Shown here piece after piece: positions 4,983 through 19,821 of a stretch of 64,000 bases of DNA (the stretch's first letter is position 1; each line of letters begins with the position of its first letter). The notes beneath the pieces were generated by a model. That model searched no databases, had not been told where the DNA came from, and saw only the letters and a list, made by a program, of their open reading frames with translations. The translations under genes and the position numbers were made by a program. The stretch is from Promethearchaeota archaeon (lineage in GTDB: Archaea > Asgardarchaeota > Lokiarchaeia > Sigyniarchaeales > SOKP01), in the NCBI GenBank assembly GCA_016839765.1, contig JAEOTP010000043.1, positions 119,655 to 183,654 of the forward strand, read 5' to 3'.

Positions 4983-6086
4983 TTAATATTTTGAAGGAGT
5001 TTTAGATTTGATTTTATATTTTGGTATCTCTTGAACTTTTTTCAATTCTTTCTCAAAATCTCTTTTTTCTCTAAGGAACCTCTCTTTATCTCTTTCTAAT
5101 TTTTCTCTTTCTCTTCTAATAGCATTTTTTTCAGTGTCTATCATCGACTTTTCTTTTACTAAATGCTTATAATCATTATTTAATCTTTTTTGTTTATCTT
5201 CCAAATCACGAATCTTGCGTTCTAATGAATAATAAGTATCTTCCGCTTTAGGAACTTTCCTATTTAGCTCTTTTAATCTTGTTTCTTGTTGTTGTTTCTT
5301 TTTTTCCAAATTTCTTACATCATTTTCAATTTTATCTCTAAAGTTTTCCAAATCTTCTTTTTTTTTATCAATTTCACGAGCTTTAAGATTTAGATCTTTT
5401 TTTTTAATACGATTTTTTTCTTTTTCATCTTTTAATTTTCTTTTTTCATCATCAATCCGGTTTTTTTCATCAAAAATGTTTTTTCTTAGATCATTGATTT
5501 CTTTATTTAAATTATCCCTTTCTTTTGAAAGATGTTTGATTTCATTTCTCAACTCCATTAATTCATTTTCTAATTTTTCAATTGTTCTCTCTAATGCATT
5601 TTCTCTTCTTTCCATTCCAGGTATTTTGGTTTTAATCTCTTTAACACGAACTTCTGCTCTTGCTTTTTCTCTTTCTAAATATTTTTTCTCACTTTCTAAA
5701 GCGTCTTTTAGTCTATCTAACTTTTCTTGATATTTATCTAGGTCGGCATTTTTTTGATCTAACTCTCTTTCTTTTAAACTTAGATTATTTCTATGTTGCT
5801 TTATTCCATTTTTCATTCTTTCTAATTCACTTTTTAACTTTTCACGTTGGTTTAGAAGATTTTTGACTTCAAGTTCTTTCTCTTTTCTCTTTTTTTCAAG
5901 TTCTTTTATATTATCTTGATACCCTTCAAGTTTTTTAATAACCTTTTCCCAATCGCTTTTTTCTCTGTTTAACTTTATCCTTTCTTCCTTTATCTTTTTA
6001 AGTAGTCTTGTATCTTGAATAATTTCGATTTCTTCTTCTGGCGTTTTCTCTCGAATTTGATACTTAGGAATTGGTTTATCATTCAT
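4983..6086 (-). CDS. Long coiled-coil protein with a repeated terminal IPKY-x4-KTP motif
   Basis: K/E/R/L-rich heptads throughout; IPKYQIREKTP at N-terminus, IPKYKIKSKTP at C-terminus. Confidence 0.85.
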   Translation of the reverse strand: MNDKPIPKYQIREKTPEEEIEIIQDTRLLKKIKEERIKLNREKSDWEKVIKKLEGYQDNIKELEKKRKEKELEVKNLLNQREKLKSELERMKNGIKQHRNNLSLKERELDQKNADLDKYQEKLDRLKDALESEKKYLEREKARAEVRVKEIKTKIPGMERRENALERTIEKLENELMELRNEIKHLSKERDNLNKEINDLRKNIFDEKNRIDDEKRKLKDEKEKNRIKKKDLNLKAREIDKKKEDLENFRDKIENDVRNLEKKKQQQETRLKELNRKVPKAEDTYYSLERKIRDLEDKQKRLNNDYKHLVKEKSMIDTEKNAIRREREKLERDKERFLREKRDFEKELKKVQEIPKYKIKSKTPSKY

Positions 6087-6290: not shown

Positions 6291-6719
6291 ATGGAGTTTG
6301 ATGAAGAATTTGATGAAGAGTTTGATGATGAATTTGATGAAGAACTTGATGAAGAACTTGATGAAGAATTAGAAGAACCTTCTGCAAAAACTCCAGCGGA
6401 AGAGGTTAAAGCTAAAACTCCAGCGGAAGAGGTTAAAGCTAAAACTCCAGCAGTTAAAGCTTTTTCGGCAGGAAAAAAGATTTCAGTTTATTTTATGTCG
6501 ACAATAGGTCCTGGTGAAAAAAAGCAAAAATTACTCATAAACACAGGAAACAGCGTTGGGGATATAAAAGAGACTGTTGCGAATTTATTTGGTTTAGATC
6601 CTGCTGATTTTCATTTATCTTCAGGTGGAATTACCATGGATGAGAGTTCAAATGTAAGTGAATATAACGTGAATGATGGAGAAGATATACTATTAATTCC
6701 AGCAAGTACTGCTGGTTAA
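6291..6719 (+). CDS. Ubiquitin-like (beta-grasp) protein 1 with acidic repeated N-tail, C-terminus PASTAG
   Basis: Ubl pattern SVGDIKETV...FHLSSGGITMDESSNVSEYNVNDGEDILLI (compare ubiquitin TIENVKAKI...[29 protein letters not shown]); AGGTG RBS upstream. Confidence 0.85.
   Translation: MEFDEEFDEEFDDEFDEELDEELDEELEEPSAKTPAEEVKAKTPAEEVKAKTPAVKAFSAGKKISVYFMSTIGPGEKKQKLLINTGNSVGDIKETVANLFGLDPADFHLSSGGITMDESSNVSEYNVNDGEDILLIPASTAG
6297..6451 (+). repeat. Intragenic tandem repeats: degenerate 12-bp units (F/L-D-E-E), then 27-bp units AAAACTCCAGCGGAAGAGGTTAAAGCT x2.4
   Basis: 27-bp units at 6387-6413 and 6414-6440, partial at 6441-6451. Confidence 0.9.
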
Positions 6720-6736
6720 AAAAAATCATTATCCTA

Positions 6737-7546
6737 TTAGTTTTTCTTTTTTAAATTTTTTTCTTTTCTTGATGGAATCAGAGCAATTTCGTCATCATCA
6801 TCAATAGCATAATCTTTTATTTGTGAGTTTTCATGCAATAATATTCCTCCAGAGGATAAAAGAAAATCTTCTAAATTATAGTCAAATAATGTTCCAATTC
6901 TTTCTTTAACACTAAATATTAATTCTGTTGTATCAATTATAATGATTTTTGTTTTTTCACCTGGCTCAACTAATGATCTTATATAAACTCGTATCTGGTC
7001 TTCCTTTTCAATAAAATTTGTAGGAGGTGTATAAATTATCCCCTCGTCAGTCTTATCCCTGTTTTTCAACATATTTTCGATTAATATTTTTCTCTCGTGT
7101 TTATCAAAATACAACATTTCTCTGATAAACATTATTTTATCCATTTTTGATAATTCTAAAAGATTTATTTTTTCTAATTCTTCCCCACTAAACACAGAAA
7201 AAATATATTTATTAATTATTTCCATATTATCATATGATTCATTTGATTCAACATAATCTTCTATTGAAGGCATGACATCAATATAATCCTCAATAAGATC
7301 AATAGGTTTTTTTTTAATCGATTTTTGTTTTTTGACATATTTTTTCTCGCTTTTCCTCTCATCCTCACTACTCGCAGATTGAATAATTGTATAGATAGTA
7401 CTGGTGGATAGTACTGAGACACTACCGATAACTAGAAAGAGAAATAAAGGAATACTTTCTATATGGAATAAGAAAAAAGCCATATAGATAATTACAAAAA
7501 TAATATAAAGGGTTATAATACTTAAAACTCTATTTTTTTTCTTCAT
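6737..7546 (-). CDS. Membrane-anchored Ubl-domain protein (2 N-terminal TM, C-terminal Ubl without terminal Gly)
   Basis: Two hydrophobic segments; C-terminal VYIRSLVEPGEK...SVKERIGTLF...DFLLSSGGILLHENSQIKDYAIDDDDEIALIP is paralogous to the neighbouring Ubls. Confidence 0.85.
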   Translation of the reverse strand: MKKKNRVLSIITLYIIFVIIYMAFFLFHIESIPLFLFLVIGSVSVLSTSTIYTIIQSASSEDERKSEKKYVKKQKSIKKKPIDLIEDYIDVMPSIEDYVESNESYDNMEIINKYIFSVFSGEELEKINLLELSKMDKIMFIREMLYFDKHERKILIENMLKNRDKTDEGIIYTPPTNFIEKEDQIRVYIRSLVEPGEKTKIIIIDTTELIFSVKERIGTLFDYNLEDFLLSSGGILLHENSQIKDYAIDDDDEIALIPSRKEKNLKKKN

Positions 7547-7601
7547 GATTTTTTATTAAATTATTATCTAAATTTCTAATATATAATTTAAAATTTAAAT
7601 T

Positions 7602-7626
7602 CCATTGGAATGAATTTGAAGTTTTT
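7602..7626 (-). promoter_or_regulatory. 25-bp element, left arm of inverted repeat, upstream of the TM-Ubl gene
   Basis: CCATTGGAATGAATTTGAAGTTTTT is the exact reverse complement of 8467-8491; overlaps dyad ATTCCA-T-TGGAAT at 7599-7611. Confidence 0.7.
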
Positions 7627-7630
7627 ATTT

Positions 7631-8302
7631 TCATACACCTTGCATTTTTTTTCTAACTTTAGAATATTTATCTGTATCTAATTGGAATGTAATTCTTTTT
7701 TTTTCTTTTTCAATTTTTATTAATTTCAGTTTTTTTAAAACATATAAATATTTTTTAATTATATTATGATTCTTTTTTAAGTTAGTTGCTATTTCTGTAA
7801 TTTTTAATGCTTTATCTTCCTTTTTCATAAAATTAATTATTTCTTGAACAATAGCCAAATTTAAATAATAATAGAGCTCGTCAAGTTCTGGATTTGAATC
7901 GTATTTATAAATAATTCTTCGATTGTTAATTTTTTTTGATCTAACAAATCGAAATTTTTCCAAACAAGATAGATGCCATAAAGCTTGATTACTTCCGATA
8001 TTTAGAGCATTCATTATTTCATTAATATTTGACGGATTTTTCTTTATGTAATTAAAGATTTCATTCCTTACTGGATGTTCAATAATATTATTTTTCATCA
8101 ATTTTGTTCCAGGAATGATCATTCTCTTTTTAATAAGATTTTTAATGGTAATTTCAATCCTAGCTTTATTGATAAAGGGATTTGATTTTACCCTATTACT
8201 AATAAATACAACAATGTTTTGTATTGAAAAGAATGGTTTTTTTTCTAAATATTCTTTTACTAATTCAAGAATAATAGATTCGACATTATTCATAGAGTTC
8301 AT
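7631..8302 (-). CDS. Winged helix-turn-helix transcriptional regulator (tandem ArsR/MarR-like wHTH)
   Basis: RNEIFNYIKKNP-SNINEIMNALNIGSNQALWHLSCLEKFRFV and a second unit LKITEIATNLKKNHNIIKKYLYVLKKLKLI. Confidence 0.8.
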   Translation of the reverse strand: MNSMNNVESIILELVKEYLEKKPFFSIQNIVVFISNRVKSNPFINKARIEITIKNLIKKRMIIPGTKLMKNNIIEHPVRNEIFNYIKKNPSNINEIMNALNIGSNQALWHLSCLEKFRFVRSKKINNRRIIYKYDSNPELDELYYYLNLAIVQEIINFMKKEDKALKITEIATNLKKNHNIIKKYLYVLKKLKLIKIEKEKKRITFQLDTDKYSKVRKKMQGV

Positions 8303-8466
8303 AACCCTATACTTTTATAATGTTAAAATATTTGGATTTTGTAAATATATATTCTTTCTGCAACATTATTTTACACCTTATATAATTATTAGGCATTCAT
8401 TCAATTTATAATATCATTTCTTAGGCATCCAAATAAGTTTCTTTTTATTTTAAGTTAAAAAACTAA

Positions 8467-8491
8467 AAAAACTTCAAATTCATTCCAATGG
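8467..8491 (+). promoter_or_regulatory. 25-bp element, right arm of inverted repeat, upstream of the Ubl2-E1-E2-JAB-RING genes
   Basis: AAAAACTTCAAATTCATTCCAATGG, 81-105 bp before the Ubl2 ATG. Confidence 0.7.
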
Positions 8492-8571
8492 GTTTTATAA
8501 TATCGTTTTAATGCGATTTTATTAAACTTAAAAAATAAAAAATTACAAAATAAAAAAAAGTCGTGAAATAA

Positions 8572-8898
8572 ATGAGTTTTGAAGAAGATTTTGATGAGGA
8601 ATTAGAACCTGTTAAATCTAAAACACCATCTACCAAAATTCCTTCAGCAGGAAAGAAATTGACTTTATACTTTACGTCAACCATTGGACCTGGTGAAAAG
8701 AAGGAAAAATTAACGGTAAATGATGCTAATCATGTAAGTGATATTAAGGAAACATTAGGAAATTTATATGGCCTTGATCCTAATGATTTTCACTTATCAT
8801 CTGGTGGAGTTACTATGGATGAAAATAGTCAATTAAAAGATTATAATTTAAATGATGGCGACGATATTCTTTTGATTCCTGCGAGTACTGCTGGGTAA
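8572..8898 (+). CDS. Ubiquitin-like protein 2, acidic N-tail, C-terminus PASTAG
   Basis: Close paralogue of 6291..6719 (shared STIGPGEKK, DIKET, DFHLSSGG, DILLIPASTAG); directly upstream of E1. Confidence 0.88.
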   Translation: MSFEEDFDEELEPVKSKTPSTKIPSAGKKLTLYFTSTIGPGEKKEKLTVNDANHVSDIKETLGNLYGLDPNDFHLSSGGVTMDENSQLKDYNLNDGDDILLIPASTAG

Positions 8899-8977: not shown

Positions 8978-10213
8978 ATGGTGATAATATTGGATAAAGA
9001 TTCAGATTTTTTTGCAAAAGCATTGTCAGTAAAAGAGAGAGATTTGTATGATCGCCAGTTTCGTCTCGAGGGCTGGTCCCAAAAATTAGTAAAAAACTCG
9101 AGAGTGTTAATTGTTGGTGTAGGAGGTTTAGGATGTGAAATTGCTAAAAATTTAGCCATGTTAGGGTTAGGCCAATTAGATCTTGTTGATTTAGATATCA
9201 TTGAACATTCTAATTTGAATCGTCAAATTCTTTTCACAGATGCGAAGATAGGAGAACCTAAGGCAGTTGTTGCTGCTCGAAAACTAAAGGAAATTAACCC
9301 TAATATTATTGTTAAGGGATATCATACATCTCTAGAAAGATTAAATCCTGCATTATATCAAGCTGCTGAAGTTGTAATTGGGGGCCTTGATTCAATGAAT
9401 GCGCGCTTGAACTTAAATGCTCAATGCATAAGATTTAGAAAACCACTCGTAGATGCAGGAGTATCAGGTTATCATGGTCATATTTACACTATCTTTCCGT
9501 ATCAAAATGCTTGTTATGAGTGCAATCCATTACCAGTAAGTGAAAGTGATGAAATGGCAGCTTGTACAGTTGTTGGAGTCCCCAGAAAAAGGATTCATTG
9601 TGTTTTTAAAGGAGATATGGCATTTAAAGAAAAGTTTGATAGAGATCCAAATCCAAAAGATATAAATGATATTAAATTTATTCAAAAAGTTGCAAATGAA
9701 TTGGTCAATAAACATAATTTCTTACCTGAATACACTAAAGATGATATCATAAAAATCATTGATAGGCATGATCCTGGAATAATTACCATAAATGCAGTTA
9801 TTTCTGCTTTACAATCACATGAGGTAGTAAAAATTCTTCATTGGAAAAAAGGTCATAAAGGATTAGGAGAACCTATTAAAAATTATGTGATTTTTAATGC
9901 CATGACGATGAAATTATACCATATTGAAAAAACGAGAAATCCAGAATGTTCTCAATGTGGTAAATCTGTTAGAAGAGTAGCTATAAAAATGAGGTCTCAA
10001 TCGCCATGTATAAATATAATTAAGATATTAAAGAAAAACGGATTTGAATTGGAGCCTGATTTTGAACCTGTGCTAACCTTATTGGATTTCAATGATATTA
10101 AAGTAATTGATTTAGAACAGAATACTATTGAAAACGGTTTAAGAAATTACGAATTTATTACAGTTGCAGGGTTTAAGGGTGGAGAAATTTATGTAACCTT
10201 AAAATTAAAATGA
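8978..10213 (+). CDS. E1 Ubl-activating enzyme (ThiF/UBA family, Uba2/Uba3-like)
   Basis: YDRQFRL, GVGGLGCE, DLDIIEHSNLNRQ, CYEC, catalytic-Cys-like CTVVGVPRKRIHC, TINAVISA, CSQC. Confidence 0.92.
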   Translation: MVIILDKDSDFFAKALSVKERDLYDRQFRLEGWSQKLVKNSRVLIVGVGGLGCEIAKNLAMLGLGQLDLVDLDIIEHSNLNRQILFTDAKIGEPKAVVAARKLKEINPNIIVKGYHTSLERLNPALYQAAEVVIGGLDSMNARLNLNAQCIRFRKPLVDAGVSGYHGHIYTIFPYQNACYECNPLPVSESDEMAACTVVGVPRKRIHCVFKGDMAFKEKFDRDPNPKDINDIKFIQKVANELVNKHNFLPEYTKDDIIKIIDRHDPGIITINAVISALQSHEVVKILHWKKGHKGLGEPIKNYVIFNAMTMKLYHIEKTRNPECSQCGKSVRRVAIKMRSQSPCINIIKILKKNGFELEPDFEPVLTLLDFNDIKVIDLEQNTIENGLRNYEFITVAGFKGGEIYVTLKLK

Positions 10214-10319: not shown

Positions 10320-10847
10320 ATGAGTATAAGAAGTAGTCGCGTTTCCCGCGATTTTGCTGGATTAAAAAAAATGCTTAAAGTTGGTACTATAGTTCAACTA
10401 AAACCATTTAATTCTAAAAAAAAGAGCATTGATCATTTAGCTATCACAATTAAAGGCCCTAAAGGTACTGTCTTTGCTGGGGGACTTTTTAAACTAGAAA
10501 TGAGATTCCCTGCTCAGTATCCTAAGCAGCCTCCTTTTGTAAGAATGCATACTCCAATTTGGCATCCAAATTTTTGGCCAAAACCAAGTGAATACAAAGG
10601 AAAGAGAAATATTTGTCTAGCATTAATAGACCCTTCCTTAATTGGGAAAAAGGGTGGATGGAGTCCTTCAAAAACCGCTGTTACAGTAGTTCAAGCAATA
10701 ATTGCTATGTTAAATACCCGGGGTAAATATGTAAACCCAACAGATGTTTTTAATAAAAAAGCAGCAATAGAAATGATGAAAAATCCTAAATTTTTCGAGA
10801 AAAAAGTTAAAAATTTAGTGAAGAAGTACGCTAAGAACAAGTGGTGA
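10320..10847 (+). CDS. E2 Ubl-conjugating enzyme (UBC fold)
   Basis: GPKGTVFAGGLFKLEMRFPAQYPKQPP, WHPN, NICL (catalytic Cys), WSPS. Confidence 0.93.
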   Translation: MSIRSSRVSRDFAGLKKMLKVGTIVQLKPFNSKKKSIDHLAITIKGPKGTVFAGGLFKLEMRFPAQYPKQPPFVRMHTPIWHPNFWPKPSEYKGKRNICLALIDPSLIGKKGGWSPSKTAVTVVQAIIAMLNTRGKYVNPTDVFNKKAAIEMMKNPKFFEKKVKNLVKKYAKNKW

Positions 10848-10854
10848 AATCATA

Positions 10855-11661
10855 ATGAATATTGATGAGAAGAAAAACAATTTAATCAAAGAAGCAATAA
10901 AGCAAAAAATTAAAGAGAAAATTAAAAAAGAATTACTTGAAGAGATATATACCGAATTACAATTAGAAGAAGAATTAAGGGAAGAAATAACTTCTGAACT
11001 TATTGAAACCCAGCCATTAGAGCATTCAGAAACAGTTAAAGCCAAACTTGAACCCATACCAATGGAACCGGTAAAAACATATGCTAAGAATGATAAAGCT
11101 GAAGCAAAAGTAGCTCTAACAGTAAAAGCTGTCCTTAAGATCGCTAGTCATTCATTAAAATATGCTCATTCTAAAATTCGAAGAGAGGAATGGGTTGAAG
11201 TGATAGGATTACTCGCTGGAAAATTTGACAATACTAAAGGAGTCCTTCATGTGGAAGATGCCTATCCAATGGGACATGGTACAGCAGTTTATGCTGAAAT
11301 TAAAGATTATAAAAATTATGTTAGAGCTTTTAAAGACATAAAAAAGAACAGCCTTTTTATTTGTGGATGGTATCATTCCCATCCTTCTTATGGATGTTTT
11401 ATGTCTAAAGAAGATTTAGGAACTCAAGCAAGATACCAAAAATTATGGGATAAAGCAATTGCGCTAGTTATAGATCCATACCAAATTGATGGCACTTCAT
11501 TGGGTTTTGAAATCTATCGTGCGAATTTTAAAACAAATAAGTGGTTTTCAGTACCATTTGATATTAAAGGATATTTAGATGTGAGAATGTTGCCGGAAAT
11601 TTTGGAATTTATGAATCCAATCATTGAAGGTAAACCTGTTTATTTAGAATATGATGAATGA
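10855..11661 (+). CDS. JAB1/MPN+ (JAMM) metalloprotease, Rpn11/CSN5-like, with N-terminal coiled coil
   Basis: EVIGLL...GWYHSHPSYGCFMSKED...ALVIDP. Confidence 0.92.
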   Translation: MNIDEKKNNLIKEAIKQKIKEKIKKELLEEIYTELQLEEELREEITSELIETQPLEHSETVKAKLEPIPMEPVKTYAKNDKAEAKVALTVKAVLKIASHSLKYAHSKIRREEWVEVIGLLAGKFDNTKGVLHVEDAYPMGHGTAVYAEIKDYKNYVRAFKDIKKNSLFICGWYHSHPSYGCFMSKEDLGTQARYQKLWDKAIALVIDPYQIDGTSLGFEIYRANFKTNKWFSVPFDIKGYLDVRMLPEILEFMNPIIEGKPVYLEYDE

Positions 11662-11684: not shown

Positions 11685-12836
11685 ATGGTTAAAAAGAAGG
11701 GTTTAGCAATAATATTTATTGTTTTTCTAATAATTGGTATAATACATAGTTCTATCTCAATTTCCTTAAATATTTTTTTAACTTGGATATTTATTGGTTT
11801 ATGGATAATTTTTACGATTAAGATTTTTGAAAATATAAAGCAGCATCGCGAATTCAATTCACCACATAATACTGCTTTTTTTGTAATCATCCCTTTATTC
11901 ATCGGAATTTTTTACTCCATTTGGGGGTATTTTACAGGTATATTGGGTGAAAACCTTCTTGAAGGCTCAAATATATATTTTAGTTGGTGGAGTCTCATTT
12001 TTGGATTTCCATTTATAATATATGGTTCTTATTCTTTATATCGTTGTTTTAAGAAATATAATGTAATCTATTTTGGAACCAAGTCAGTAAAAGCTAGGAC
12101 ATTAGGATATATTTTAACTTCCACAGTTATTCTTTTTATAATAATTTATTGGGTAATGTTTTATAGTGTTATAGAATTTTATGATTCTCTATTAACCCCT
12201 CTTCATTTTTCTTTAAATCTAAATCTTCTATTATTATTCATTGCATCATTATTGATCTTTATTATTTTTGGATTAGCTAGTTCACATAGAACACTTCCAA
12301 CATTAACTCGGGATTACATTGCTCAACGTACTAGAAGAATAAATTCATTAAGTACTCCTACAATTCAAAGGCAAAGGGTACGTACAACAACTAGAACTAC
12401 TCCATCACCTTCAAGAAGAACTGTGACTCAAACAACGAGGTCTAGATCTCATTCATCGAGAACAACACCTACTTCCCAAAGGCAAAAAACTAGAACAACA
12501 AAAACTACTAGAACTAGAGCCGTAAAAACAACTTCAAAAGCTATAAATTTAGATAAATATAAACCAAGAGCATCATATCTGTCAGAAGATGATTTTAAAT
12601 GTATTTTTTGTTTTAAGCTGCCAAAACTACCCGATGATAATGGCAGAGGGATAATTGTATGTCCAAATTGTAGATATCCGGCTCATGCTGATGAATTTAA
12701 AGATTGGCTAAGAACCTCAAATCTCTGTTCAAGATGTAGTACTCCCATTCCATCCAGATTTAAACATAATCCTAGAATAATTAGTATAAAAAATTATCAA
12801 ATAGTCTATAGGCATTTTTTAAAGAAGAAAAGATAA
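11685..12836 (+). CDS. Multi-pass membrane protein with C-terminal RING-variant zinc finger (putative E3 ligase)
   Basis: About 6 hydrophobic segments, R/T/S-rich linker, C-x2-C-x16-C-x2-C-x4-H-x2-E-x3-W-x6-C-x2-C; last gene of the E1/E2/JAB run. Confidence 0.72.
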   Translation: MVKKKGLAIIFIVFLIIGIIHSSISISLNIFLTWIFIGLWIIFTIKIFENIKQHREFNSPHNTAFFVIIPLFIGIFYSIWGYFTGILGENLLEGSNIYFSWWSLIFGFPFIIYGSYSLYRCFKKYNVIYFGTKSVKARTLGYILTSTVILFIIIYWVMFYSVIEFYDSLLTPLHFSLNLNLLLLFIASLLIFIIFGLASSHRTLPTLTRDYIAQRTRRINSLSTPTIQRQRVRTTTRTTPSPSRRTVTQTTRSRSHSSRTTPTSQRQKTRTTKTTRTRAVKTTSKAINLDKYKPRASYLSEDDFKCIFCFKLPKLPDDNGRGIIVCPNCRYPAHADEFKDWLRTSNLCSRCSTPIPSRFKHNPRIISIKNYQIVYRHFLKKKR

Positions 12837-12841
12837 TTAAG

Positions 12842-13795
12842 CTAATTTTTTAATTTGATATTGTTTCTTAAATCTCCGATAGTAGTCACTAACTCTGCAT
12901 AAACATTGTGCGGATGAATTGATTCAAAACTCTCAATTTTAAAGATAACTTTAAAATCATCCTCTAAATTTGGAAAATTTCTTATAATAAAATTCTTAGC
13001 CATTTCTCTAATTACATCTTCGGCAAATAATGGTTTTAAATGAGCACTTCTGACTAGTTTAGCTTCCTCTGGTCTTTTTAATACAGATTGCATTTTTCCG
13101 CTCATTGAATCTTCAATAATTTCAATAATATCTAACACATCAATCTTATGATTATTTAAATCCTTTATTTGCACTATTATAGTTCCATTTGATCTTTGAT
13201 TATGTGAGCTAAAGGGTAAAATGTTGAGAAGTTTTTGTACTGTATCATCAGGAATATTTATATCACTTCTATTTTTAATAATTTCTTCAGCATATTCTTG
13301 ACTCATTTCCTTTGCACACGGACAAACTGTCATTCCAACGGCGCTTGCTCCAATAAAGTAATTAAAGTCAATTTTTTTCTGTTGGTTCTTCCAAGCTTTC
13401 ACAAATGAACTTATATTATACGCTTTTTGTATTGTTCGTTGCTTATCATCTTTTGCTTGGACTATAATTTTGCCCTCTAGTTTAACTTCAACTTTTTCAG
13501 TATATGAATGTTTTTGTAATAATTTTCGAGCAATCCTATCTCCTACTACTTCTACAGAGGGAGTTGGCTTGAATATTACTTCATTTATGATTTCCTCAAT
13601 AGTTTCAGATGTTCGAGACATATGGATTCCTCTTTTGTGTCTAGGTAATGAAATTAATGCGGAAATTATAGGATAAAAAGAATATTTTTTATTTTCTTGA
13701 ATGATATCTACTTTTTTTTCTACTCCTACAATTCCTACTTTATCTATAGGAATGTCTACTGTCGAAATTGAGTCTTGTAAATCCTTTTTAAACAG
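12842..13795 (-). CDS. mptA: GTP cyclohydrolase MptA (FolE2 family); start extended upstream of the track ORF
   Basis: Upstream in-frame DLQD...IDKVGIVGV...RGIHMSR; GMTVCPCA, SHNQR, LKRPEE, ESFESIHPHN; CTG at 13795 after a GGTGA RBS. Confidence 0.88.
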   Translation of the reverse strand: MFKKDLQDSISTVDIPIDKVGIVGVEKKVDIIQENKKYSFYPIISALISLPRHKRGIHMSRTSETIEEIINEVIFKPTPSVEVVGDRIARKLLQKHSYTEKVEVKLEGKIIVQAKDDKQRTIQKAYNISSFVKAWKNQQKKIDFNYFIGASAVGMTVCPCAKEMSQEYAEEIIKNRSDINIPDDTVQKLLNILPFSSHNQRSNGTIIVQIKDLNNHKIDVLDIIEIIEDSMSGKMQSVLKRPEEAKLVRSAHLKPLFAEDVIREMAKNFIIRNFPNLEDDFKVIFKIESFESIHPHNVYAELVTTIGDLRNNIKLKN

Positions 13796-13898
13796 ATTGA
13801 TTAAAAATCACCGATATTTATTTGCTTCTACCAATTCTAATAATTATTATTCAATTAAATTATTTTTTGATATAATGTAAAATTAATTTTGTTTTTTT

Positions 13899-15062
13899 AT
13901 GTACAGTTCAGAAATTTTTAGCAATTATGGTTTAATTGGTGATAACTTAGAACTAAAAAGAGATATTAAATTAGAAATTGATGAAAATGGTAATTTTAAG
14001 GGTATTTCGTATAAAAATGTAGGAAATACGGTCCACCTTTCAGATAATAATTCAAATTTATTATTAGTACCCGGATTAATCAATTCTCACATTCATATAG
14101 GAGATAGTTTTGCCAAGGAACAAGGGTTTAATAAATCTTTAAAGGAAGCTGTCGCTCCCCCAAATGGAATTAAGCATCTCCTATTAAAACAAGCTCCAAA
14201 AGAAGAGAAAATAAAAGGGATAAAAAAGGCAATACAGGAAATATTTTCAAATGGAATTACTTTTTTTATCGATTTTAGGGAAGGGGGATTTGATGGACTT
14301 AAGATTTTATATGAATTTATTGAAAGAGAAAAAATTATTGATTCTTTTATTTTAGGAAGATATAGAGAGAAAGAAGAGATAAAAAAGATTTTCAAATTAG
14401 CAGATGGGGTAGGTTTACCCAGTTATAAAGGTATACATCCAGAAGTTAAAAAAATCCTAAGAAAATGTAAAGCGGAGACTGGAAAAATTGTTGCTTGTCA
14501 TGTTGCTGAATTAAAAAGGAATAGTAGTTTAATAAATCAAATTTTTAATGATAATATAGTCGATATCTTCATTCATGGAACTCATTTCATTAAAAAAGAT
14601 TTAAAACTTTTAGTACAAAAAAATAAAGCCTTAATTTTATGCCCACGTTGTAATGGATATTTTGGAGCTGGTTTTCCACCAATAACTAATATTTTAAAAC
14701 TAAAAATACCCTTAGCAATCGGAACAGATAATGTAATGGCTAATAGTCCTGATTTATTTGAAGAATTGCGGTACTTATACCGGATCTTAAGAGTGATGGA
14801 CAAGAACATAAAAGTAACAGGGAAAGATTTGCTAAAGATGGTTACAATTAATGCTGCTAAAATCTTTAATGTTGAAAGTCGGATAGGTTCGATATCAGAA
14901 GGGAAAAATGCGAATTTCTTTATAATTGATTTAAATAATCCTAATTATTATACACCAAAATTAAATATTGATACGTTTTATGCCTTAATCATTGGAAGAA
15001 CTAATTCATTTAATATTAAAAAAACATATGTAAGGGGTAAACTTGTCCATGAAAAACGCTAA
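13899..15062 (+). CDS. Metal-dependent amidohydrolase (nucleoside deaminase-like)
   Basis: PGLINSHIHIGD, HVAE, IHGTH, AIGTDN. Confidence 0.8.
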   Translation: MYSSEIFSNYGLIGDNLELKRDIKLEIDENGNFKGISYKNVGNTVHLSDNNSNLLLVPGLINSHIHIGDSFAKEQGFNKSLKEAVAPPNGIKHLLLKQAPKEEKIKGIKKAIQEIFSNGITFFIDFREGGFDGLKILYEFIEREKIIDSFILGRYREKEEIKKIFKLADGVGLPSYKGIHPEVKKILRKCKAETGKIVACHVAELKRNSSLINQIFNDNIVDIFIHGTHFIKKDLKLLVQKNKALILCPRCNGYFGAGFPPITNILKLKIPLAIGTDNVMANSPDLFEELRYLYRILRVMDKNIKVTGKDLLKMVTINAAKIFNVESRIGSISEGKNANFFIIDLNNPNYYTPKLNIDTFYALIIGRTNSFNIKKTYVRGKLVHEKR

Positions 15063-15714
15063 AAAACCTTATATTATTTTAAATGCAGCCATGACGATAG
15101 ATGGGAAGATTTCCTCAAAAGAGGGAGATTCTGAAATATCAGATGAAGAGGATTGGAAAGAAGTTCATAAACTTAGAACTCAAGTAGATGCGATTATGGT
15201 TGGAAAAAATACAATTTTAAAGGATAATCCTAAACTTCATATTAAATTTTATGAACATAAAGGTTATTATCGTATTGTTATAGATAGTAACTTATCCATT
15301 CCAATTGATTCACAGGTGATAAATTTTAAGCCAGAAACCTATCCTACAATAATATGTACTACAGAAAATGTACATCAAGAAAAAGTTAAAGAATTTGAAG
15401 CTAAAAACATAAAAGTAATGAGGAACGGAAAAAGTTCACGCGTAGATCTTAAAAAGTCAATGTCAAATTTATATAATTTAGGGATTAAATCTGTTCTTCT
15501 AGAAGGTGGAGGGAATCTAAATTGGAGTTTTATTAAGGAAGATTTGGTGGATGAAATAAGACTAACTATAGCACCATGGATTATAGGAGGAAAAAGTTCT
15601 ATCACGTTAGCTGATGGTGATGGCTTTGAAAATATGCTCCAAGCTCAAAGGTTTAAACTCGTTGATCTTAATCATAGGGAGGATTATGTTATTTTAAAAT
15701 ATAAAAGATGGTAA
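15043..15714 (+). CDS. arfC: 2,5-diamino-6-ribosylamino-4(3H)-pyrimidinone 5'-phosphate reductase (RibD_C / ArfC)
   Basis: AAMTIDGKI, VHKLR..VDAIMVG..T...DNPKL, LLEGGG. Confidence 0.88.
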   Translation: MSMKNAKKPYIILNAAMTIDGKISSKEGDSEISDEEDWKEVHKLRTQVDAIMVGKNTILKDNPKLHIKFYEHKGYYRIVIDSNLSIPIDSQVINFKPETYPTIICTTENVHQEKVKEFEAKNIKVMRNGKSSRVDLKKSMSNLYNLGIKSVLLEGGGNLNWSFIKEDLVDEIRLTIAPWIIGGKSSITLADGDGFENMLQAQRFKLVDLNHREDYVILKYKRW

Positions 15715-15715
15715 A

Positions 15716-16828
15716 ATGAGTAAAAATACAAATTATTATAAAAATCTTTCAATCCGAAAACTAAAAGAAAAAGTAACACAGATAAAATCCTCATTACCAG
15801 ATGAGAGTCGACATACTATCACGTTTTCAAAAAATTTCACCTTATCTTTATCAAATTATTGCCAAAATGAATGTAAATATTGTTTTTATAATTATAAAGT
15901 TCCTAAACTAGAGGGTAACGGTAATGTCATTCTTATAGGAAATGAGCAAATTATTACACTGATTCAAAAAGCCATAAAGTCAAATTGTAAGGAAGCTTTA
16001 TTAATGTCTGGAGAAAGACCAGATAGCTTCATTGAGGTTAAACGAGAATTAAGAGAGAGAAAATGTAATGATTATATGCATTTTATTATTGTTATTTGTT
16101 CTTATCTTTTGGATTTTAAACTCTTGCCTCATACCAACTTTGGAGTACTTACTTTTGAGGAATTAGATAAATTAAAAAATTTTAATGCCAGTATGGGGCT
16201 AATGTTAGAAAGCACTAGCTTAGAATTATTCAAAAAAGGTGGAGTTCATGAATTATCGCCAGGTAAATTACCAGAAAAAAGAATAGCCCATATTAAGAAT
16301 GCGGGAAAGTTAAAAATTCCGTTCACCACAGGTTTATTATTAGGAATAGGTGAAAATTTCGAAGATAGGATTAGAGATCTTAACTTAATCAAAGAAATTT
16401 ATGAAGAATATGGCCATATTCAGGAAGTCATAATACAAAATTTTGTAGGAAAAGAAGGAATTCAATATCATCCAGAATATCCCATATCAATTGAAGAAAC
16501 TCTAAAAATAGCAGGTATTGCAAAACTTATATTTGGAAACGAGATAGCCATCCAAGTACCTCCTAATTTAATACGAGGATATGAGAAAGAAGCAATCGAG
16601 TTAGGAGTCAATGATTTTGGAGGGATATCTCCATTTACAATTGATTTTATCAATCCTGATCATTTATGGCCTCAAATTAATAATTTAAAAACTATTTGTA
16701 GGAATTTAGGTTATAAACTTAAAGAAAGATTTCCAATTTATGAAAAATATATACAAAAATCAGAATTCTGTCCAGTAAATATTAAAAAAATTATAGATAA
16801 TATTAATTTAAATGGTACAGATTTATAG
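15716..16828 (+). CDS. cofG: FO synthase subunit 1
   Basis: ITFSKN, CQNECKYC, LLPHTN, SMGLMLE, PFTTGLLLGIGE, HIQEVIIQNF, QVPPNL. Confidence 0.93.
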   Translation: MSKNTNYYKNLSIRKLKEKVTQIKSSLPDESRHTITFSKNFTLSLSNYCQNECKYCFYNYKVPKLEGNGNVILIGNEQIITLIQKAIKSNCKEALLMSGERPDSFIEVKRELRERKCNDYMHFIIVICSYLLDFKLLPHTNFGVLTFEELDKLKNFNASMGLMLESTSLELFKKGGVHELSPGKLPEKRIAHIKNAGKLKIPFTTGLLLGIGENFEDRIRDLNLIKEIYEEYGHIQEVIIQNFVGKEGIQYHPEYPISIEETLKIAGIAKLIFGNEIAIQVPPNLIRGYEKEAIELGVNDFGGISPFTIDFINPDHLWPQINNLKTICRNLGYKLKERFPIYEKYIQKSEFCPVNIKKIIDNINLNGTDL

Positions 16829-17936
16829 TCAAATTAGGCAAAATATTAAATCGATTTTGAAGAAGACTCTCGAATCAGAAGAAATTACTTCTCAAGAAGC
16901 TTTAGAACTTCTTAATGTGACAGGAAAAGAATTTAGAGCATTACAAGCTACGGCAGATGAAATTTGTTTTAAGAAAAAGCAGAATATTGTCACATTTGTA
17001 ATAAATAGGAATATAAATTTTACAAATATTTGCCAAAAAGGTTGTAAATTTTGTTCCTTCAGTGTTCCTATTGCAAGTAAAGAAGGGTTTTTATTAACCA
17101 TTGAGGAAGTAAGAAAGAAAGTTCAGGAAGCCCAAATTAATGGCTGTTCTGAAGTATGTATTCAAGGTGGCATACATCCTAAATTAAAATTTGATTTTTA
17201 TCTTGATATTTTAAAAACTGTAAAAAAAGTAAATCCAGAGATTCATATACACGCATTCTCACCTCAAGAAATATATTATATGTCTAAATTATCAGGCAAT
17301 AACATTGAAGATACTCTAAAAATTTTGAAAAAATCAGGTTTAGATTCAATACCGGGTACTGCTGCTGAAATTTTGGTTGATAAAATAAGAAAAATTATAT
17401 GTCCAAATAAAGTAAGCACATCTGAATGGATTAACATCATATCTATAGCTCATAACTTAGGAATACCCACCACATCAACAATTATGTATGGACATATTGA
17501 AGAGTTGGAAGACAGAATTAAACATTTAGAAATTATAAGAAATATTCAGAAAGAGACCCATGGGTTTACTGAATTTGTGCCTTTACCTTTTGTTAAAGAA
17601 AAACCAATGTTAGCTAGATTAAAAGATTTTCCATTACGATTGAGTTATGGAATGGCAGACTTGAAATTATTTTGTGTAGCAAGATTGTTTTTTAATAATT
17701 ATATTGATAATTTACAATGTTCGTGGGTAAAATTAGGACCAAAATTCGCACAAGTATCTCTTAATTATGGAGTCAATGACTTTTCAGGAACATTAATGGA
17801 AGAGAATATCTCAAAGAGTGCTGGTGCTGAATTTGGAGAATATTTATCACCAGATGAAATCATTAAAATCATAAAAAGTGCTGGGAAACGACCAGCTCAA
17901 AGAAATACGTTATATAATATTGTAAAATATTTTTAG
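16812..17936 (+). CDS. cofH: FO synthase subunit 2
   Basis: NRNINFTNICQKGCKFC, PGTAAEIL, GFTEFVPLPF, SWVKLG, GTLMEENIS. Confidence 0.93.
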   Translation: MVQIYSQIRQNIKSILKKTLESEEITSQEALELLNVTGKEFRALQATADEICFKKKQNIVTFVINRNINFTNICQKGCKFCSFSVPIASKEGFLLTIEEVRKKVQEAQINGCSEVCIQGGIHPKLKFDFYLDILKTVKKVNPEIHIHAFSPQEIYYMSKLSGNNIEDTLKILKKSGLDSIPGTAAEILVDKIRKIICPNKVSTSEWINIISIAHNLGIPTTSTIMYGHIEELEDRIKHLEIIRNIQKETHGFTEFVPLPFVKEKPMLARLKDFPLRLSYGMADLKLFCVARLFFNNYIDNLQCSWVKLGPKFAQVSLNYGVNDFSGTLMEENISKSAGAEFGEYLSPDEIIKIIKSAGKRPAQRNTLYNIVKYF

Positions 17937-17955
17937 AGTCAGCGCTTCTGTTAAT

Positions 17956-19821
17956 TTAATAAGTTTCATGTGTTTGTAGATAGTTTAAAATATAACGTTG
18001 TGCAATTAAATCCGAGCTAACCTTACCTAAGACTTCACCATCTTTAACTACCGGCATTGCAGATATTTGAAATTGTTCTAATTCTCGAATAATATCTAAA
18101 ATTGCAAAATCAGGTGTGGCGCTAATTACTTCTTTCGTCATAATTTTATCAAGCGAAACATCTTGTATACCTTCAGCAGTAGATTTGGTAATATCCCAAT
18201 CAGTCATAACGCCTACAAGCTTACCTTCAGAGAGTACAGCAACTATTCCACTGTTTTTTTCAATCATTAATGATGCTGCTTCTTGCACACTACTATTTAC
18301 ATCAATAGTAGGTATTGGAACCATAATATCTTTAGCTGTTCTTTCACTTTCTTTTGCTGTTAGGCGTTGTAGACTTATATTTTCTGCTGCAACACAAGGA
18401 AGTATATCTGGGTTCCTTGATAATAAATCCACTAATTCAATCATATTACGGCTAACTACCTCTTTTCTATAACCCTCACCGGCTACTAAACGCTTTTTTG
18501 ATAATTCTTCAAATTCTTTAGCGTGATTAGCTAACCAATTTTCAACAGCCTTACGGTTTCCAAGATATTCTTCAGGTATTTGGAGATGATCAGGTGTTTT
18601 TATTAAATGTTCTTGGGCAGCATAGATTACTCCCCCAGAATTCACTAAGTAGTCATTTGCAATCATAACTCCTTTTTCACGATATACAATTTGTTCCATA
18701 CGTATTCGAGCAGATTTCCTATTTGGGTCAGGGGAATAAGTATTTGCGCCCTCAACTATTACTGACCAATTTCCCATTCTTTTTACTAGCATTGAAGGAG
18801 CTTCAGTTGGCCATACCCCCAAATAATTAAATACAGGAGCTGCAGGTATTAAACAAAAGCCATCTTCGAGTAATAAATTATTTGAATTTGTTGAGAATTT
18901 TGTAGGATGTTTATAACCTTCTAAAATAACATTACTCTGAAAATAGGAAGTAGTAACAAAACCCTCTTTCTTCCATAAATTATATAATTCTAATACTGGT
19001 AAACCGGATTCATTATATAAATACCCTTCTAAGTCGCTAATTCCTGTAATTTTAACTAAAGGAATTCTTTCTTTTAATATACGTGCAGCATGAGCACCAA
19101 CAGCACCAAAACCTTGAATTAAAATTGTGAGTTTTTCTAATTTTGGAATTTTCAAATTTGCGAATTGAGGTAGAACACGCAATCTAGGCATTATTTCTAA
19201 CAGTGTTTGTAGAGCAGTCACTACACCTCCAGCAGCAGCTCCAAGTTCATCAATACGATTTCCACCCATATCTGCTGGTTTTGATACGGCACTATCTAGT
19301 CCATTTTCAATCGCAATTGTTTTCATATCAGAATCATTAGTCCCTACATCAGGTCCAGGTACATATATATCCCTATAACGTTGGATTAAGCGTGCAAATC
19401 CTTTAATTGTCTCATCATGTTGTTCTTTTGAGATGTTTCTCTCTGCAACTATACCTGATTTTCCACCCCCATATGGAAGATTAGCTGCTGCATTTTTAAG
19501 AGTCATTCCACGAGCTAAATTGTAAATATCTGATGGTGTGATATCTGGGAGCATTCGAATTCCTCCCATAGAAGGGCTTCCCATGGCAAGAGAATCTACA
19601 ATTAAATATCCGCCAATTTCTAATGGAGATTTTTCGTCCCACATACAACTAACTAGTTTAGGACCAACTTTATCAGTAATAACTCCTAAACGTGAAAGAA
19701 GATGTACATCTAAATTACTAAATTCTAAATAACACCTTCCATTCTCTCTTTTAAGTCGAGTTTTAAGGGTAACTTCTGGGAGTCTTTCCTTGAGAAAAGC
19801 ATCCATATTTTTTGGAATCAT
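17956..19821 (-). CDS. Glu/Leu/Phe/Val dehydrogenase fused to a C-terminal CBS pair
   Basis: GGIRM, MTLKNA, GGGKSG, GPDVGT, QGFGAVG, EGAN, NSGGV; two CBS repeats at the C-terminus. Confidence 0.88.
   Translation of the reverse strand: MIPKNMDAFLKERLPEVTLKTRLKRENGRCYLEFSNLDVHLLSRLGVITDKVGPKLVSCMWDEKSPLEIGGYLIVDSLAMGSPSMGGIRMLPDITPSDIYNLARGMTLKNAAANLPYGGGKSGIVAERNISKEQHDETIKGFARLIQRYRDIYVPGPDVGTNDSDMKTIAIENGLDSAVSKPADMGGNRIDELGAAAGGVVTALQTLLEIMPRLRVLPQFANLKIPKLEKLTILIQGFGAVGAHAARILKERIPLVKITGISDLEGYLYNESGLPVLELYNLWKKEGFVTTSYFQSNVILEGYKHPTKFSTNSNNLLLEDGFCLIPAAPVFNYLGVWPTEAPSMLVKRMGNWSVIVEGANTYSPDPNRKSARIRMEQIVYREKGVMIANDYLVNSGGVIYAAQEHLIKTPDHLQIPEEYLGNRKAVENWLANHAKEFEELSKKRLVAGEGYRKEVVSRNMIELVDLLSRNPDILPCVAAENISLQRLTAKESERTAKDIMVPIPTIDVNSSVQEAASLMIEKNSGIVAVLSEGKLVGVMTDWDITKSTAEGIQDVSLDKIMTKEVISATPDFAILDIIRELEQFQISAMPVVKDGEVLGKVSSDLIAQRYILNYLQTHETY

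Follow-up and report, generated by a model that had tools for sequence, protein, structure and literature searches.

A 64,000-nucleotide stretch of a Promethearchaeota archaeon genome (GCA_016839765.1, contig JAEOTP010000043.1, forward strand positions 119,655 to 183,654; hereafter the window) encodes two soluble ubiquitin-like proteins (Ubls), Ubl1 and Ubl2, together with an activating enzyme (E1), a conjugating enzyme (E2), a JAB/MPN+ protease, and a membrane protein with a RING-like finger. We consider this locus likely to represent an Asgard protein-tagging system of the ubiquitin type whose tag ends in Ala-Gly. We observed the fold and register of the Ubls, intact catalytic residues in the E1, E2, and JAB, the operon order, an invariant Ala-Gly end, and, among homologues, C-terminal tails and polyprotein precursors.

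The last residues of both Ubl1 and Ubl2 were DILLIPASTAG, immediately followed by a TAA stop, and neither carried Gly-Gly or a propeptide in the source genome, as the initial annotation had described. In the nearest relatives (L075, L076, L078) both genes likewise lacked any residue after Ala-Gly, which excludes an assembly slip as the cause. Only two of 3,151 non-overlapping open reading frames in the genome (96% complete) ended in Ala-Gly, namely Ubl1 and Ubl2, and the shared ending is beyond chance. The two cores were identical at 59/82 residues, and 31 of these 59, including 6/11 in the shared tail, used different, synonymous codons. Identity of the 11-residue tail is therefore held by selection on the protein, and the same divergence ruled out recent duplication or gene conversion behind it. 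As a caveat, the two tails were identical over 11 residues in just 19/51 related loci, because Ubl1 orthologues ended in SIAG (24), STAG (20), or SVAG (10). The N-terminal arm of Ubl1 owed its expansion to short acidic repeat units plus a repeat of 27 bases bearing the Lys motif (window about 6295-6445, plus strand), and its length differed widely between relatives.

Across 300 distinct homologues, a sample biased to close relatives whose members are not independent, the penultimate Ala was found in 300/300 and the terminal Gly and Ser(-4) in 299/300 each; structural alignment placed the Gly at the G76 position of ubiquitin. Position -3 was Thr (258), Ile (26), or Val (11), and the first residue past Ile-Pro was Ala in 256 and otherwise Val, Ser, His, and others. 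The family end motif is thus IPxS[T/I/V]AG, with Thr not fixed. STAG had been proposed as a family-specific end recognized by the E1: its Ala-Gly portion indeed hardly varied among homologues, while its Thr did. None of the 300 had the Gly-Gly of ubiquitin proper, of CsUb (the Caldiarchaeum subterraneum ubiquitin), or of the Asgard ubiquitin linked to ESCRT (endosomal sorting complex required for transport), Ala occupying position -2 in each. The membrane-anchored paralogue served as a natural control, with Ala-Gly lost in 57/57 copies. A search of 1.8 billion representatives was dominated by unrelated multi-ubiquitin-domain proteins. Larger Asgard proteins (Roadblock-domain, HerA-like ATPase, and zinc-ribbon-like) also bore a C-terminal Ubl with intact Ala-Gly (P0178, P0183, P0203, P0241; L155:11075-12583, L169:8583-9503, L170:9694-11448), and in these the whole protein may be conjugatable.

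The E1 also matched ThiF, and the source genome contained MoaD/ThiS-like Gly-Gly carriers, so the Ubls could be read as sulfur carriers or non-conjugated adaptors with the E1 serving another Ubl. We regard this as extremely improbable: co-oriented E2, Rpn11-like JAB, and RING-like genes stayed with the Ubl across lineages, and selection on the terminal Gly was lost only in the membrane paralogue.

All 22 aligned members matched the Pfam ubiquitin family PF00240, and 20/22 weakly matched the SUMO-like PF11976. The AlphaFold (AF2) model of Ubl2 had a predicted local distance difference test (pLDDT) score of 91.5, and its best structural matches were ubiquitin, ISG15, NEDD8, and CsUb, with SUMO also among them (Foldseek 6fj7 rank 2, E 4.8e-8; VIA Z 14.4, root-mean-square deviation 1.7, 77 aligned). 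Model residues 4-82 aligned to ubiquitin 1-76, so that Ala-Gly fell on Gly75-Gly76, and the modelled fold is the ubiquitin-type beta-grasp. The E1 scored about 130-136 bits against UBA1, SAE2, and UBA3, with SAE2 the best single-domain match, compared with 61 against UBA5 and 42 against ATG7. The E2 was a standard HPN-type UBC protein that matched UQ_con, not UFC1. The RING-like finger had seven Cys/His and a conserved Trp (C306, C309, C326, C329, H334, E337, C348, C351; W341; Pfam E 0.12), from which E3 activity is inferred only. Co-folding of E1 and Ubl scored 0.55 against 0.00 for the best control (contact agreement between runs ≥88%; partner pLDDT ≥86). The mark used was reached by 58/80 solved pairs and 2/110 mismatched pairs, and at scores of ≤0.60 by only 7 solved pairs and both mismatches; the co-fold thus lends weak support to the pairing, and solved E1-Ubl complexes remembered by the model may account for it.

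These identities bear on the UFM1/Atg8 analogy of the initial annotation, which gave way to a ubiquitin-type fold with canonical E1 and E2. The UFM1 tail has the spacing IP-x4-G, equal to that of the Ubls. With UFM1 homologues also reported in nine Asgard clades (PMC12962969), the Ubls might be Asgard UFM1 homologues. This is very unlikely, and we rejected UFM1 identity: the Ufm1 family PF03671 matched 0/22 members and nothing in the source genome, the canonical enzymes gave the E1 about 135 bits and UBA5 just 61, and a distinct Asgard protein that looks UFM1-like (L202) formed its own family, with 3 bits on the profile of the Ala-Gly Ubl family. No Atg8 Pfam match was found among the 22 members, and no Atg-like component turned up in the operon. 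UFM1 and Atg8 were not among the 50 structural matches listed, which alone excludes neither. Weak PF03671 matches in the phylum were mostly unrelated (L197 was a nucleoside phosphorylase). The separate UFM1-looking family (L202:1390-1698, L204-L208), present in two family-level groups, had a tail after its Gly, and the PDB matches of L202 were to UFM1 only and weak (E 0.18).

Residues beyond the Gly (1-14) were present in 128/300 homologues (43%), and the remaining 172/300 were bare. Tails occurred in 75/120 nearest clusters and 24/75 E1-adjacent genes. The tail YF was found in 37/120 nearest clusters, and since identical tails recurred across many independent assemblies, tails are not errors. 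DNA comparison of close relatives traced the tails there to insertions or deletions of one or two bases in the stop-codon region. On the E1 tree of 76 operons the tail state changed at least 12 times, and many tailed members fell in the source operon's own clade (starred, 24 rows). Fifteen sequence clusters (three partial) were head-to-tail precursors of two or three Ubl units, each ending in Ala-Gly followed by the acidic arm of the next unit. Three di/tri-Ubl precursors lay directly before E1-E2-JAB with the JAB intact, and the E1s of precursor operons grouped in a starred clade with a Hodarchaeales-labelled operon. The precursors were P0121, P0123, and P0274-P0285, with L194:7001-7690, L195:2960-3697, and L196:7001-7753 in Hodarchaeales-related loci.

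The encoded-mature state is therefore a lineage quirk and not a family trait. The initial annotation, which held that the Ubls are encoded mature and that the JAB acts only as a deconjugase, was right on the first point for the source genome and its nearest relatives and not for the family; on the second it is not supported, given the tails, the state changes that include the source clade, and the poly-Ubl precursors. A family made mature would fit the bare genes of the source and nearest relatives and the 172 bare homologues, and the tails, as unconserved by-products of stop-codon indels, might be trimmed by a general carboxypeptidase or another JAB. We find this improbable because the source JAB was 79-86% identical to the JABs of tailed operons, tails are frequent (128/300), and di/tri-Ubl precursors need an endopeptidase and sit in operons with an intact JAB. 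Two studied JABs also perform both jobs. CsRpn11 of Caldiarchaeum carries out maturation and deconjugation (PMC5654768, PMC6043591). In Ensifer aridi, the bacterial Ubl BilA ends in Val-Ala-Gly and is trimmed by its JAB, BilC, which both matures and deconjugates it; BilA homologues have up to nine extra residues, and the lysine isopeptides of BilA leave an AG remnant (10.1101/2023.09.26.559546). By sequence and by analogy, the operon JAB is most likely maturase and deconjugase, and on the simplest reading its maturase activity is unneeded in the source strain, where both tags are bare.

In the pathway that we propose, the JAB would cut after the Gly to remove tails and release polyprotein units, although both tags would need no trimming in the source genome. 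The E1 would adenylate the terminal Gly and then form a thioester at Cys196, the tag would be handed to Cys99 of the E2, and the membrane RING-like protein would steer it onto lysines in proteins located at the membrane or close to it. The JAB would also strip the tag from its targets.

Several points weigh against this scheme. Changing the penultimate Gly to Ala strongly slowed CsRpn11 (PMC6043591), so the operon JAB must be adapted to its substrate. Tabulated E1 and JAB alignment columns showed no decisive substitution that would accommodate Ala (E1 position 162 was Val in 66 and Thr in 10). A second JAB in the source genome (C33) could do the trimming. The RING-like finger had Glu at the sixth ligand (58/60) and scored below the Pfam cut-off. 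The K-T-P motif considered below as an acceptor site was only modestly enriched genome-wide (10 seen vs 3.2 expected, 5/10 within the locus), and it might serve phosphorylation or binding rather than conjugation.

Given the canonical E1 and E2 and the BilA precedent, the acceptors are best read as protein lysines. A hydrophobic-K/R-x-K-T-P motif was present in 136/152 Ubl arms, and the neighbouring coiled-coil protein had K-T-P at its N-terminus in 58/60 and at its other end in 55/60. More weakly, we infer that the K-T-P lysine is a candidate acceptor, in the Ubl arms (as chains) and in the coiled-coil protein. It is possible, if doubtful, that the tag modifies lysines in a SUMO-like manner directed by the motif, with Hodarchaeales-related lineages making it from polyprotein precursors, a reading likelier than lipidation. 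An OST3/OST6-family membrane protein (L185:2795-3304) had the same K-S-K-T-P N-terminally, as a possible membrane substrate or by chance.

The canonical E1 and E2 and the membrane RING-like ligase might alternatively couple the tag to an archaeal lipid with an amino group, probably a serine lipid, with an Atg8-like outcome. The usual targets of membrane RING ligases are membrane proteins. BilA, likewise ending in a single Gly, goes to lysine, so a single Gly is no predictor of a lipid target. On the other hand, the membrane RING-like gene is conserved in the operon, and a pssA-like gene in the source genome (103 bits vs a cut-off of 107) suggests that a serine lipid could exist. Yeast Uba1/Ubc4/Tul1, Tul1 being a membrane ligase, place ubiquitin onto phosphatidylethanolamine (PMC12203941), a precedent for canonical enzymes being compatible with a lipid target. 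Against this, phosphatidylserine decarboxylase was detected in 2/61 genomes of the family and was not found in the 96% complete source genome; the E1 scored about 135 bits to UBA1/SAE2/UBA3 vs 42 to ATG7; and the E2 and the Ubl fold were of the HPN and ubiquitin types. A lipid acceptor had no positive support for the Ala-Gly tag, and we think it quite improbable.

Table 1 Features of the Ubl locus in window coordinates. TM, transmembrane segments; HTH, helix-turn-helix.
Feature	Position	Strand	Length (residues)	Remarks
Coiled-coil protein	4983..6086	-	367	K-T-P motifs at both ends like the Ubl arms; neighbour kept in Loki-type genomes; candidate substrate
Ubl1	6291..6719	+	142	acidic N-terminal arm expanded by repeats, VKAKTP repeats included; domain of ubiquitin fold; no residues after Ala-Gly; PF00240 E 2.9e-5
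Ubl1 C-terminal 11 codons and TAA stop	6684..6719	+		
Membrane-anchored Ubl-domain protein	6737..7546	-	269	2 N-terminal TM; C-terminal Ubl domain without Ala-Gly; non-conjugatable paralogue; only in close relatives
Double winged-HTH putative regulator	7631..8302	-		divergent from Ubl2; position kept in close relatives
Ubl2	8572..8898	+	108	opens the operon; VKSKTP in its acidic arm; ubiquitin fold; bare end Ala107-Gly108
Ubl2 C-terminal 11 codons and TAA stop	8863..8898	+		
E1	8978..10213	+	411	canonical; nearest solved structures UBA1, SAE2, UBA3 (E about 1e-38); active-site Cys196 invariant 76/76
E2	10320..10847	+	175	UBC fold; HPN 82-84 (75/75), Cys99; orthologue of Lokiarch_29330
JAB/MPN+ protease	10855..11661	+	268	Glu115, His174, His176, Ser184, Asp187 invariant 68/68; closest solved CsRpn11
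Multi-pass membrane protein, C-terminal RING-like finger	11685..12836	+		at least 5 TM; putative E3; below Pfam cut-off

Ubl2 and the E1, E2, JAB, and RING-like genes were all co-oriented, with successive gaps of 79, 106, 7, and 23 bases, and the gene for the two-TM third Ubl and the winged-HTH gene lay on the minus strand between Ubl1 and Ubl2 (Table 1). The Ubl was present in 123/301 sampled genomes of the phylum, spanning at least nine family-level groups; several other family-level groups among the 301 gave no Ubl match with this query. Relatives were labelled Promethearchaeota, and operon members included Helarchaeota- and Hodarchaeales-labelled proteins beside those of Loki-type genomes and further lineages. 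The Ubl-E1-E2-JAB-RING set was retained in nearly all distant loci looked at, some of them split into two blocks. Many relatives had an additional orphan Ubl elsewhere in the genome, and some orphan copies adjoined a stand-alone RING-like gene with no E1 or E2 (L174, L103). Downstream (window 12842-19821) were a folE2-type GTP cyclohydrolase (Pfam match) and, by sequence, amidohydrolase, RibD-like reductase, and CofG/CofH-like radical S-adenosylmethionine genes and a dehydrogenase-CBS fusion, apparently unrelated to the Ubl system.

The source genome contained two further E1/E2 sets, L181 (G000:C23:9987-14028), in which a 524-residue E1 lies close to a Lokiarch_10330/41800-type E2, and L183 (G000:C33:160627-162637), a JAB-E1-E2 cluster. 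A small Gly-Gly Ubl was located at L182:5559-5813. Neither short motifs nor the surroundings of the Vps25 gene revealed an ESCRT-linked Gly-Gly ubiquitin in the source genome, a result that does not show its absence. The Ala-Gly tail probably helps separate the tag from Gly-Gly modifiers and from the other E1/E2/JAB sets in the cell.

The cluster itself is already known by annotation, and the Ala-Gly end has a tested bacterial precedent in BilA. Spang et al. reportedly noted the cluster around Lokiarch_29330 in Lokiarchaeum GC14_75 in 2015. All but two residues of the source E2 matched the Lokiarch_29330 segment printed in the supplement of PMC9192718, and this near-identity makes the locus orthologous to what has long been annotated as the Lokiarchaeum ubiquitin cluster. 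The Lokiarchaeum ubiquitin studied so far, Lokiarch_37670, is another protein, with Gly-Gly and a propeptide. In the literature searched, which most subscription papers fell outside, no paper noted the Ala-Gly end, the tails, or Asgard poly-Ubl precursors, or tested the Ala-Gly tag.

The closest organization is the Ub/E1/E2/srfp/Rpn11 operon of Caldiarchaeum subterraneum (PMC5654768, PMC6043591), which has the same five parts; CsUb was among the top structural matches to the Ubl and CsRpn11 was the best match to the JAB. CsUb ends in Gly-Gly and a 9-residue propeptide and the Caldiarchaeum RING protein is small and soluble, whereas the Asgard operon has two paralogous tags that end in Ala-Gly, with optional tails and a long acidic arm, and its RING-like protein is multi-pass and uses Glu as the sixth ligand. 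Bacterial type II BilABCD resembles the Asgard system in its Ala-Gly Ubl with variable residues after the Gly (10.1101/2023.09.26.559546). It differs in being bacterial and anti-phage and in having no RING E3; we compared the two on terminus and processing only, and their common Ala-Gly may be convergent. SUMO too has a disordered N-terminal arm bearing a conserved hydrophobic-Lys motif, and SAE2 was the best single-domain match to the E1, but SUMO ends in Gly-Gly, relies on a cysteine protease, and has an E1 that is a heterodimer. UFM1 and Atg8/Atg12 share the single terminal Gly while belonging to other Ubl families with non-canonical E1s (UBA5, ATG7) and special E2s, and none was a best match here. 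Eukaryotic polyubiquitin genes share the head-to-tail organization of the relatives' 2-3-unit precursors. The Asgard units, unlike those of polyubiquitin, are non-identical, each has an acidic arm, and the junctions follow Ala-Gly; the two kinds of precursor are probably of independent origin.

Trypsin would leave a remnant of 19 residues from Ubl2, 49 from Ubl1, and 14-49 across homologues, because there is no Lys/Arg near the C-terminus. Proteomics based on di-glycine (diGly) remnants would therefore miss these conjugates, as had been predicted, mainly for this reason, and diGly enrichment should not be relied on for cultured Asgard strains. An Ala-Gly remnant, of the kind obtained with the V95K variant of BilA, would have a mass of +128.059 Da, equal to that of a Gln residue. 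Asgard ubiquitin work has so far addressed Gly-Gly tags; the Ala-Gly tag would be a second widespread modifier with a full enzyme set of its own and a different reactive end, in a system small enough for rebuilding in vitro. Were the lipid reading true, it would mean a reversible Asgard Ubl-lipidation anticipating Atg8-style membrane marking. Overall, the locus suggests that Ubl pathways running in parallel and insulated from one another, as well as precursor genes resembling polyubiquitin, predate eukaryotes.

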